Source: a virus (lineage: Duplodnaviria > Heunggongvirae > Uroviricota > Caudoviricetes). From it: a stretch of 14,584 bases of DNA. The translations under genes were made by a program, and so were the position numbers. Shown in pieces: positions 9,736 to 12,828 of the stretch; position 1 is the stretch's first letter, and each line of letters begins with the position of its first letter. Under the pieces are notes generated by a model. That model was not told where the DNA came from and searched no databases. It saw only the letters and a program-made list of their open reading frames with translations. The DNA lies in IMG/VR virus record IMGVR_UViG_2877291059_000002, one strand, 5' to 3'.

Positions 9736-9748
9736 GCTCACAGAGTGA

Positions 9749-9789
9749 TTTGACATCCTTCACGCCTGAAGAATGTGGAGGATGTCAAA
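9749..9789. promoter_or_regulatory. Perfect 11-bp inverted repeat (TTTGACATCCT / AGGATGTCAAA) with a 19-bp spacer, between cI and the methyltransferase gene
   Basis: Read directly; each arm contains TTGACA; no U-tract follows, so not a canonical intrinsic terminator. Confidence 0.35.
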
Positions 9790-9828
9790 AGCACGTTGGC
9801 ATCATCATGCCACGTAAAGAGGATTAGT

Positions 9829-11046
9829 ATGCTTCAAAAGCTAGACGTCGCAGACAGCGTGCGTCGCGAGCTGTCTCCCCGTACCGCGCGTAAACACAAA
9901 GCTGAGTTCGGCCAGTTCATGACGCCTTCTGGCGTGGCCCGTTTTATGGCCTCCTTGTTTCCACCGAGCACAATGAAAACTTGCCGTCTACTGGACGCAG
10001 GCGCTGGTGTAGGCGCACTGTCTTGCGCCTTCCTCGACCGTTGGCTGGTTGGCGAGTTTGGCTTTGAGTCTGTCGAGGCAACAGCCTACGAAATCGACAA
10101 AAAGCTGTGTGGTCACCTTGCGAAGCACTTAACCGGGTACAGGAGAGTGACGCCCCGCATCATCGAAGGGGATTATATTGAGCTGGCAACCGCCGAAGGT
10201 CTACAGTATCGAGGTTATACCCATGCAATACTTAATCCGCCTTACAAGAAGATCAATAGCCAGTCAGCCCACCGGCAGGCTCTTCGCGCTGTCGGTATCG
10301 AGACGGTAAATCTGTATTCCGCCTTTGTTGCACTGGCTGTAGGTGAGGTTGCACCTGGCGGGCAGATAGTGGCCATAATCCCACGTAGTTTCTGCAACGG
10401 ACCGTATTACCGTCCGTTCCGTAATTTCATACTTGAGCGGGCAGCAATCCGCCATATTCATTTGTTCGAATCACGTAGCAAAGCTTTCAGGGATGACGAT
10501 GTGTTGCAGGAAAATATTATCATCCGCCTGGAGCGTGGAGGCCGTCAGGAGGCTGTTACAGTCACAACTTCGACCGATGATAGCTTTTTTGACCTGGTCA
10601 CCTACGAACACCCATTTGACCAGATTGTGTACCCGGACGATTCGGAGCGGTTTATTCATGTGCCGACCACGCTCGAGAAAAGCGCCATTGAGTTATCATC
10701 CGCCGTACAATGTTCGCTGGCTGATATTGGCGTGAAGGTATCGACCGGACCGATAGTTGATTTCCGACTGAAAGCTCATTTGCGCAGCATGCCAGAAGAA
10801 GGAACTGTTCCGCTGATCTACCCGAGCCATTTGAGTATGAGTAGCACTGTCTGGCCTGTGGAAGGTTTGAAGAAACCCAACGCAATCATGCGCAACGACG
10901 AGACAGAAAAGTGGCTTTACCCGAACGGTTTTATTGTGTGGTGCGTCGTTTCTCGTCGAAGGAGGAAAAGCGCCGAGTGGTGGCAAGCGTCGTTGATCCT
11001 GCTACCTTCAGTGAGTATTCAGTGTTGGGATTTGAAAATCACATGA
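9829..11046 (+). CDS. Gamma-class N6-adenine DNA methyltransferase (Eco57I/PstI-type), N-terminal ~370 residues up to a frameshift
   Basis: AAGAGGA ribosome-binding site 5 nt before ATG at 9829; motif X FGQFMTP, motif I LLDAGAGVGAL, motif IV NPPY; the frame breaks near 10925-10935. Confidence 0.8.
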   Translation: MLQKLDVADSVRRELSPRTARKHKAEFGQFMTPSGVARFMASLFPPSTMKTCRLLDAGAGVGALSCAFLDRWLVGEFGFESVEATAYEIDKKLCGHLAKHLTGYRRVTPRIIEGDYIELATAEGLQYRGYTHAILNPPYKKINSQSAHRQALRAVGIETVNLYSAFVALAVGEVAPGGQIVAIIPRSFCNGPYYRPFRNFILERAAIRHIHLFESRSKAFRDDDVLQENIIIRLERGGRQEAVTVTTSTDDSFFDLVTYEHPFDQIVYPDDSERFIHVPTTLEKSAIELSSAVQCSLADIGVKVSTGPIVDFRLKAHLRSMPEEGTVPLIYPSHLSMSSTVWPVEGLKKPNAIMRNDETEKWLYPNGFIVWCVVSRRRRKSAEWWQASLILLPSVSIQCWDLKIT

Positions 11047-11297
11047 ACGTGTTTCATGAGAACAAACATGGGTTACCCGAGGCGCTGGCCCGTGGCTTGG
11101 CCGTGTTCCTGAACACTACCGCAGTGGATAAGTATTTCCGTCGCTTCAACGGGCATACACAGGTCAATGCAACCGACCTCAAGATGATTAAGTACCCAAG
11201 CCGTGACACTCTGATAGAGCTTGGCAAGTGGGCTATGCAACAAGAAACTCTCACGCAAGAACATATTGACGCTAAGCTAGGAGCTCTGACTGCATGA
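10911..11297 (+). CDS. C-terminal part of the same methyltransferase in the +2 frame
   Basis: ORF containing FYCVVRRFSSKEEKRRVVAS continues the protein after the frame break; combined length ~489 aa, typical of PstI/BsuBI-type methyltransferases. Confidence 0.6.
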   Translation: MALPERFYCVVRRFSSKEEKRRVVASVVDPATFSEYSVLGFENHMNVFHENKHGLPEALARGLAVFLNTTAVDKYFRRFNGHTQVNATDLKMIKYPSRDTLIELGKWAMQQETLTQEHIDAKLGALTA

Positions 11298-12247
11298 ACA
11301 ACCAAAATGATTATATTGAGGCCGCTCAGCAAATTATAGCATCCTTAGGCCTGCCCAGAGCGCAGCAGAATGAGCGTTCTGCTTTGTGTTTGCTGGCACT
11401 CCTGAACCTCACGCCGGGAAAAGCATGGGCCGACGCGGAAAATCCGCTTGTGGGCATTACACCAATCATGAATTGGGTTCGGGAGCACTACGGCAAGGTC
11501 TACGCACCCAATACTCGTGAGACATTCCGCCGCCAGTCTATGCATCAGTTCTGCGCTGCTGGAGTAGCCCTCTACAATCCGGACAAGCCCGATCGCCCAG
11601 TGAACAGCCCGAAGGCTGTTTATCAGATCGAACCTGCTGCTCTGTCCACGCTACGCACTTTCGGCAGCCCGGCATGGCACGATAGCCTTGCAACCTATTT
11701 AGCCGAGCGTGAAACGCTGGTTACCCGCTATGCTAAGGAGCGCGAACAGAATCGTATCCCTGTTGAAATTGCTGCGGGCCAGCAAATAACCCTCAGTCCC
11801 GGCGAGCACAGCGAACTTATCCGTGCCATAATAGAGGACTTCGCCCCACGTTTTGCTCCGGGTAGCGTGCTGGTCTATGCTGGCGACACTGGCGAAAAGT
11901 GGGGCTACTTCGACGCTCCACTGCTGGCCGGGCTAGGTGTTGATGTGGATTCACACGGTAAAATGCCAGATGTGGTGCTACATTTTACTGCGAAAAACTG
12001 GCTGCTGCTGGTTGAGTCTGTCACCAGTCATGGACCGGTTGATGGGAAGCGGCATGCTGAGCTTGCCAGGCTGTTTGCCGGATCAACAGCCGGACTTGTC
12101 TATGTGACCGCTTTTCCAAATCGCTCCATCATGGGACGATATCTTGGTGAAATCGCATGGGAAACAGAGGTATGGGTGGCTGATGCACCTTCTCATCTTA
12201 TTCACTTCAACGGAGTGCGATTTCTTGGCCCCGACTCTACTGAATGA
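11294..12247 (+). CDS. Putative type II restriction endonuclease, possibly BsuBI/PstI family
   Basis: 317-aa ORF whose ATG overlaps the methyltransferase stop (ATGA); size and partner methyltransferase type fit PstI/BsuBI-like enzymes; the endonuclease identity is inferred from context, no catalytic motif verified. Confidence 0.55.
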   Translation: MNNQNDYIEAAQQIIASLGLPRAQQNERSALCLLALLNLTPGKAWADAENPLVGITPIMNWVREHYGKVYAPNTRETFRRQSMHQFCAAGVALYNPDKPDRPVNSPKAVYQIEPAALSTLRTFGSPAWHDSLATYLAERETLVTRYAKEREQNRIPVEIAAGQQITLSPGEHSELIRAIIEDFAPRFAPGSVLVYAGDTGEKWGYFDAPLLAGLGVDVDSHGKMPDVVLHFTAKNWLLLVESVTSHGPVDGKRHAELARLFAGSTAGLVYVTAFPNRSIMGRYLGEIAWETEVWVADAPSHLIHFNGVRFLGPDSTE

Positions 12248-12266
12248 GTACAGGACCAGATAAATA

Positions 12267-12294
12267 GCCCGGCCCATGCGCCGGGTTTTTCTTT
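12267..12294 (+). terminator. Intrinsic terminator downstream of the restriction-modification genes
   Basis: CCCGGC/GCCGGG stem with a 6-nt loop, followed by TTTTTCTTT, 20 bp after the stop codon. Confidence 0.55.
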
Positions 12295-12828
12295 GCATAT
12301 CCCCTCCTGTTATCTGTCCCCTTAAAAAATAAATCACTTTAAAAATCAGTTAAGTAATAATTTTTCGCCATAAAAAGCACCGGCGGCATTTACATGAAAA
12401 TCACCAAAAGTTATATTTATTTCAAGCCAGAAACATCGCGCCCTTACACAGGGCTACATAAATCAGTCGTACGGCGCGACTTAACCCGCCGCAAAATGCT
12501 CTTTAACAACCTGGAGCTTTACAGTGTCAATGACCTGTTTAGACCCTTACACGTAAACGTGCTGTATCATCGGGTACGATCCGGTCGATGAGAGAGTATC
12601 CCCGCGCGAGAGCGAGAACGGCGTGAGAACGGGCAACACTGGCAGGAAGTTGGCGCTGACCAATACAGGGAATGTTTTGGGGTGTGGTGAAGGGTTCATG
12701 GACGGGAATATGTCGCACGTAAAGCGGCGAGGCCCGAGGGACTATTGCTGAAGATAAGTAGGCCGAATCGGGTCGAAATGGGTCTCCCACCTGCCACATC
12801 GCCAAAGCATTTCCGAGAAAGGACGGTA

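Follow-up and report, generated by a model that had tools for sequence, protein, structure and literature searches.

An EcoGIII-like two-gene restriction-modification cassette downstream of the cI repressor in a defective lambdoid prophage of Shigella dysenteriae type 1

The virus record IMGVR_UViG_2877291059_000002, a stretch of 14,584 nucleotides (nt) here called the window, is contained letter for letter in CP006736.1, the genome record of Shigella dysenteriae 1 strain Sd1617 (record positions 1706120-1720703). Between its cI repressor gene and the next early transcription unit downstream, and on the strand of cI, lie two genes, one for a DNA methyltransferase (M) and one for a restriction endonuclease (R). 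An original prediction, made from the sequence alone, had placed a type II restriction-modification (RM) module here as defence cargo, in the position that lambda uses for rexAB, and the coordinates that it gave for cI and for a methyltransferase gene 93 base pairs (bp) further on were confirmed. The gap between the two occupies 9736-9828. The features of the locus, with protein lengths in amino acids (aa), are as follows.

9022-9735 (+): cI repressor, 237 aa, with HTH_3 and Peptidase_S24 domains
9749-9789 and 9793-9815 (+): two predicted RNA stem-loops in the gap between cI and M, with no U-tract after either
9829-11297 (+): gamma-class N6-adenine DNA methyltransferase gene (M), M.EcoGIII type, with a one-base deletion in the record
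11294-12247 (+): type II restriction endonuclease (R) of the BsuBI/PstI family, R.EcoGIII type, 317 aa, intact
12266-12294 (+): intrinsic terminator closing the M-R unit, with a hairpin at 12266-12287 (8-bp stem, six G-C pairs) followed by TTTTCTTT

The M gene begins with an ATG at 9829 that is preceded by AAGAGGA, and encodes FGQFMTP (motif X), DAGAGVG (motif I) and NPPY (motif IV) in the order of the gamma class. These motifs had been predicted correctly, but the single open reading frame (ORF) of about 489 aa that had been expected to contain them is not present in the window: a T is missing, the frame from 9829 stops at 11046 after 405 aa, and the last 123 codons are in another frame, inside an ORF at 10911-11297. 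The distance from 9829 to 11297 is 1469 nt, which is not divisible by three. M matches the Pfam family Eco57I (PF07669), and with its frame repaired it covers positions 1-489 of the 494 positions of the PADLOC profile MTase_II (E 1.8e-247). No structure resembling M was matched in the Protein Data Bank (PDB), and a search of NCBIfam gave sub-threshold matches only.

The R gene overlaps the stop codon of M in the sequence ATGA at 11294-11297, as had been noted for a 317-aa ORF, and can be read to possess its own ribosome-binding sequence, AGGAG. Its identification as an endonuclease of the PstI/BsuBI type, formerly argued from context and size, is now direct: R matches PF17728 (N-terminal helix-turn-helix (HTH), E 3.3e-54) and PF06616 (C-terminal nuclease, E 4.6e-61) over nearly the full length of each profile, matches the PADLOC profile REase_II from end to end (E 1.4e-166), and aligns over its full length with the structure of SdaI (2ixs, E 1.2e-76). 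Both of the Pfam families that had been named in advance as checks, PF07669 for M and PF06616 for R, were thus found. A single PADLOC profile of 840 positions, PDLC03359 (labelled MTase_II), is matched by M over 12-510 and by R over 531-838; because one profile spans both proteins, fused M-R homologues exist, which provides an independent link between the two genes. An identical R protein is present in many S. dysenteriae assemblies, and the index of the assembly collection lists it in 156 blocks. The expected terminator after R was recovered as a hairpin and a run of Ts, and the hairpin was reproduced in a separate folding. The comparison of G+C content between the cassette and the cI backbone that had been suggested gave no clear signal: M (0.518) and R (0.538) differ from cI (0.478) and from the window as a whole (0.495), but both fall within the range of the neighbouring phage genes (0.47-0.54), and a foreign composition of the cassette was not accepted. 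The window contains no CTGCAG site where about 3.5 are expected, but at least ten other 6-bp palindromes are likewise absent, and at this length the count says nothing about avoidance of CTGCAG.

These two genes very probably constitute the EcoGIII system of the Stx2a-converting Oslovirus phages, a type II RM cassette of the PstI/BsuBI kind, here located after cI of a defective lambdoid prophage of S. dysenteriae type 1. The region is 99.3-99.5% identical in nucleotide sequence to copies in 127 Escherichia coli genomes and 74 phage records, mostly Stx2a-converting. Compared with phage P13374 of the O104:H4 outbreak strain, four of 489 residues of M and two of 317 residues of R are different, and the layout is alike. 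For the near-identical EcoGIII, the RM system, its specificity, its restriction of phages and its location in place of rexAB are already known. PMC6602927, relating the work of Fang et al. 2012, gives CTGCAG as the sequence that EcoGIII both methylates and cleaves, and adds that the system guards against lambda-like phages and influences how about 1,900 genes are expressed. The R protein of O104:H4 is biochemically active (PMC3893438), and EcoGIII has also been described in the PST2 cluster of O157:H7 Stx2a phages (PMC4587872). In the lysogens 95JB1 and 95NR1, which are among the best matches of the window, N6-methyladenine (m6A) is present at 100% of CTGCAG sites, and CTGCAG is methylated at 98.8% in O145 strain RM13514, with no such methylation in RM13516, which is without the system. 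By analogy with the literature on these near-identical copies, the Shigella cassette may be expected to have CTGCAG specificity, to be active in lysogens and to restrict phages.

The reading frame of M, interrupted in the window, is complete in seven sister genomes and in the full-length copies of E. coli and phages. Aligned with the intact copy of E. coli 90-3040, which is annotated as a 489-aa methylase with an Eco57I domain and a 317-aa BsuBI/PstI endonuclease, the window is short of two single Ts, and all 134 of 134 full-length E. coli copies span 2563 bp as against 2561 bp in the window. The first missing T lies between the ribosome-binding site and the start codon of M, a spacer (window 9824-9828) of 5 nt in all S. 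dysenteriae copies and 6 nt in the copies of E. coli and phages; because the shorter spacer is common to the whole S. dysenteriae lineage, it is considered real. The second is in codon 367, where a run of five Ts (T5) is recorded as four (T4) at 10925-10928 (CP006736.1:1717044-1717047). Reinsertion of one T at this run gives a 489-aa M identical to the protein of strain Sd197. At each of the seven further S. dysenteriae loci that were retrieved, the run is T5 and M has 489 aa; T4 is found only in CP006736.1, and the truncated product in one assembly only, that of Sd1617. T5 is the reading in the S. dysenteriae record ADUT01000048.1, which is probably the independent draft of strain 1617, although literature searches gave no link between the two and the lineage has too few substitutions for a SNP comparison to discriminate.

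The Sd1617 assembly was built by a reference-guided approach from 454, Ion Torrent and MiSeq reads, and its own authors count 84% of the ORFs as fused or frameshifted (PMC4445032). In 11.5 kb of unique sequence outside insertion sequences (IS), compared for private differences among eight S. dysenteriae genomes, the Sd1617 record has no private substitutions and three private single-base deletions, all in homopolymers. Besides the deletion in M, these are at window position 8118 and in pspA, outside the window, which in the Sd1617 record is split into calls of 115 aa and 79 aa. The S. dysenteriae type 1 genomes differ by 0-2 substitutions over the same 11.5 kb, indicative of a young and clonal lineage. 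Judged from the assembled records, the frameshift in M is in all likelihood a homopolymer sequencing error, because it is unique to one error-prone assembly that has two other private deletions of the same kind and no private substitutions. Programmed frameshifting or phase variation at the run of Ts was considered and rejected, as T5 keeps the frame in every other copy and a run of only four or five bases is too short for phase variation.

Several observations favour the view that the stretch after cI is a site of variable cargo, among them the loss of M and most of R after cI in E. coli G1/2 (described below). To the left of cI, lambda has rexA-rexB followed by the left operator (OL) and N, whereas the O104:H4 phage has a BsuBI RM system and then roughly 1 kb in which no coding capacity is evident (PMC5977221, 2018); the defence cargo predicted in place of rexAB therefore has the position already published for that phage. 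In phage mEp234, which has a lambda-like cI, hicAB and one more gene are located between cI and PL, and this different content of the slot supports its being a variable cargo site. A related Oslovirus whose cI is only 69% identical possesses the same pair of 489-aa and 317-aa genes, and its intergenic sequence and the 3' end of its cI are likewise the same. Being kept alongside an otherwise divergent cI, these parts, from the cI 3' end through M-R, move as one block.

The gap sequence is invariant in all relatives. Its folding gives a minimum free energy of -33.7 kcal/mol (z = -4.05, with none of 200 shuffles as good), and the first stem has 15-16 pairs. A perfect TTGACA hexamer is found at 9750-9755, within the left arm of this hairpin, and no plus-strand terminator was called in the 93-bp gap. 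Because CTGCAG is methylated in E. coli lysogens, M-R is evidently expressed in lysogens, although methylation does not tell which promoter is used. M-R is probably transcribed in the lysogen, at least in part by read-through from the cI promoter (PRM), which is the simplest reading of its expression; it is possible that the hairpin serves in processing or attenuation of the cI-M-R transcript.

Other features of the window place the cassette in the immunity region of a prophage remnant.

8723-8926 (-): cro, 67 aa from its ATG and in sister genomes too; Pfam Cro, PF09048, E 4.8e-34
8953-9012: right operators (OR) between cro and cI, with OR1 at 8953-8968, OR2 at 8975-8991 and OR3 at 8995-9012
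7105-7812 (-): replication helicase, 235 aa compared with 506 aa in intact phages, cut by an IS3-family element
12864-12939 (+): isrK-like RNA, Rfam RF01394, 61.8 bits (gathering threshold 50)
12964-13051 (+): C4 antisense-like RNA, Rfam RF01695, 76.4 bits (gathering threshold 45)

The cI protein is about 61% identical to that of lambda (PMC5977221), and only one of its 237 residues differs from cI of phage P13374. Relative to the footprinted operators of the O104:H4 phage (PMC5977221), OR1 is exact and OR2 and OR3 have one mismatch each. A mechanically called cro ORF with a GTG start extends to 8962. A search of the whole window with the three published operators, allowing up to five mismatches, yielded a single candidate for OL downstream of R, at 12399-12414 with five mismatches and overlapping a promoter-like site at 12389-12417, which is not convincing; this agrees with the O104:H4 phage, in which OL was not identifiable (PMC5977221).

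The replication module is of a non-lambda type and, as had been predicted, is disrupted by an IS, leaving less than half of the helicase. IS elements have also truncated the genes rha and kil, and the psp operon of the chromosome is next. The suggestion that the repressor and its cargo are what has been retained was borne out, as the sister S. dysenteriae genomes have complete cI, cro, M and R genes but truncated helicase, rha and kil. Downstream of R, the isrK-like and C4-like RNAs mark the next transcription unit and hence the downstream boundary of the slot, and they are followed by a Phage_pRha domain in an ORF ending at 13543. This arrangement suggests an RNA-controlled antirepressor module that replaces the PL-N unit. 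Modules of this sort are known from P1/P7 and Gifsy-1. In the description of the O104:H4 phage, the stretch with isrK and C4 is apparently non-coding (PMC5977221).

If the cassette acts as EcoGIII does, M would convert CTGCAG to CTGC(m6A)G on host and prophage DNA, and R would cut unmodified CTGCAG in incoming DNA, so that the lysogen may resist unmodified phages and other foreign DNA. M would be translated first, and R by way of the ATGA overlap and its own AGGAG. On the same analogy, a working RM system for CTGCAG is probably present in the S. dysenteriae type 1 lineage. Some points weigh against an active cassette that is read through from cI. The Shigella lineage has residues of its own in M (V61, Y127, A154 and A286) and in R (T119 and D314), the spacer before the start of M is one base shorter in this lineage, and the literature yielded no data from S. 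dysenteriae on its methylome, on digestion or on phage challenge. With regard to read-through, a simple promoter scan gave no sigma-70 promoter in the 93-bp gap, and a very stable hairpin follows the stop codon of cI.

The same gap bears on the tentative alternative that M-R is an independent transcription unit, with the hairpin stopping or processing the cI transcript, a promoter of its own, and a resemblance to rex that is positional only. The invariant stem-loop at 9749-9789 after the cI stop (z -4.05) and the perfect TTGACA at 9750-9755 would fit such a unit, and an RM cassette that enters a new cell may need its methylase before repressor control is established. However, the hairpin lacks a U-tract and was not called as a plus-strand terminator, there is no acceptable -10 element 16-18 nt after TTGACA and the scan found no promoter in the gap, and even where cI is divergent its 3' end stays joined to the gap and M-R, all of which speak against such a unit. 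The other doubt about expression concerns M itself. If the frameshift were real, M would lack its C-terminal quarter, and the C-terminal part of gamma-class enzymes holds the target-recognition region. Sd1617, a vaccine-challenge strain, would then really have a broken methylase beside an intact endonuclease, with R silent or inactive or with the 405-aa M still active; this is the smaller possibility, and a very improbable one. The deposited record does show T4, pseudogenes accumulate in Shigella genomes (PMC4445032), and an end of M translation at 11046, about 250 nt before the start of R, would abolish any translational coupling and could lower the expression of R, but R carries its own Shine-Dalgarno sequence. 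Loss of M with R intact is expected to be lethal, the endonuclease being unopposed, and the 123 lost residues lie within the full-length family profile. The change is also confined to one error-prone assembly and is a one-base homopolymer deletion like the other two private differences, including the one that splits pspA, in a record with no private substitutions; a sequencing error is the preferred explanation.

The role for which the cassette has been kept is a separate matter. It is conceivable, though doubtful, that it persists mainly as a selfish addiction module, whose loss would lead to post-segregational killing by residual R; this would explain its survival in an IS-shredded prophage. 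Type II RM systems are known to cause post-segregational killing (Kobayashi and colleagues). In line with addiction, eight S. dysenteriae genomes have kept cI, cro, M and R whole while helicase, rha and kil are IS-truncated, the identical R is indexed in those 156 blocks, and what partial E. coli copies retain is only the 3' end of R. In the one such copy inspected, that of E. coli G1/2, the prophage is of the same type and keeps cI with only the last 100 codons of R after it; a single deletion has taken M and the 5' two-thirds of R together, the type of loss that avoids killing. On the other hand, with only 0-2 substitutions in 11.5 kb the lineage is clonal and of recent origin, and retention may reflect lack of time; addiction is moreover compatible with defence and does not exclude it. 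That the main selected role is epigenetic regulation by CTGCAG methylation rather than defence is unlikely. Deletion of EcoGIII changes the expression of about 1,900 genes and affects growth of O104:H4, as PMC6602927 relates from Fang et al. 2012, but phage restriction is reported by the same study in the same account, the wide effect on the transcriptome may be indirect, and an intact cognate endonuclease is conserved beside M. A speculative extension is that cI-M-R forms an active, self-stabilising unit in S. dysenteriae type 1: the pair would be expressed from the immunity region of a dead prophage, CTGCAG would be methylated throughout the genome of this epidemic pathogen with regulatory side effects as in O104:H4, and post-segregational killing would explain why no other block escaped IS decay. 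This combination is possible, but we would not favour it.

The remainder of the window has several features of its own. Tandem duplications with units of 40, 125, 167, 184 and 300 nt are found within IS copies and across a DUF1737 gene, at the following positions.

2243-2683, 3048-3127, 3147-3397, 3571-4276, 5123-5483, 5895-6262 and 6315-6394: tandem duplications

At these positions the sister S. dysenteriae genomes have gaps or many indels, and the duplications are most likely misassembly in CP006736.1, which adds to the case for the frameshift in M as an artefact. A full-length match to the small RNA STnc100 (RF02076, 159.6 bits) is located at 4345-4550 (-), adjoining DUF1737 ORFs, with a weak and partial second match at 3939-4009. 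Near the start of the window, a DNA-modification protein of the Mom family (PF25680, E 4e-75) and a resolvase/invertase (PF00239 and HTH_7) are encoded side by side at 289-1026 (-) and 1218-1811 (-). Together they look like the gin-mom end of a Mu-like element, which would give the window a second function in DNA modification. A scan for tRNAs gave no genes in the window.

The locus illustrates how temperate phages place defence genes in the slot beside the repressor that is expressed in the lysogen, and how such cargo can outlive the phage. It also indicates that the apparent methylase pseudogene in the reference record of Sd1617 should not be read at face value. An active CTGCAG system, if present, would matter for the genetic manipulation of S. 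dysenteriae and for the reading of its methylomes.

Among known systems, the closest is EcoGIII of the O104:H4 Stx2a prophage (P13374; also M.Eco95JB1III and ECRM13514_3159/3160), which has the same cro and cI, a gap of 93-94 bp, a 489-aa M, the ATGA overlap, a 317-aa R, the terminator and the operators. Unlike the EcoGIII phages, the Shigella prophage is a defective one interrupted by IS elements, and the window contains no stx gene; unlike the EcoGIII copies, the window record has a one-base deletion in M, probably an artefact, and a spacer shorter by one base. R shares with PstI, BsuBI and SdaI an N-terminal HTH and a C-terminal PD-(D/E)XK nuclease domain, SdaI being a member of the SdaI/BsuBI group of PD-(D/E)XK enzymes. 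PstI and BsuBI recognise CTGCAG, and SdaI recognises CCTGCAGG. These prototypes are chromosomal and belong to other genera, and the M and R genes of PstI are divergently transcribed, whereas M and R of the window are in tandem, overlapping and phage-borne. The hicAB genes of mEp234, a toxin-antitoxin pair, occupy the same slot but are unrelated to M-R in sequence and mechanism. Lambda rexAB resembles M-R in lying directly downstream of cI on the same strand and in giving the lysogen protection against other phages (PMC5977221). There is no similarity of sequence or domains between them, the Pfam matches of M-R being to methylase and endonuclease domains only, and M-R is followed not by OL and N as in lambda but by the isrK and C4 RNAs and the Rha antirepressor unit. 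Whereas rexAB acts by abortive infection, M-R would act by restriction of unmodified DNA.

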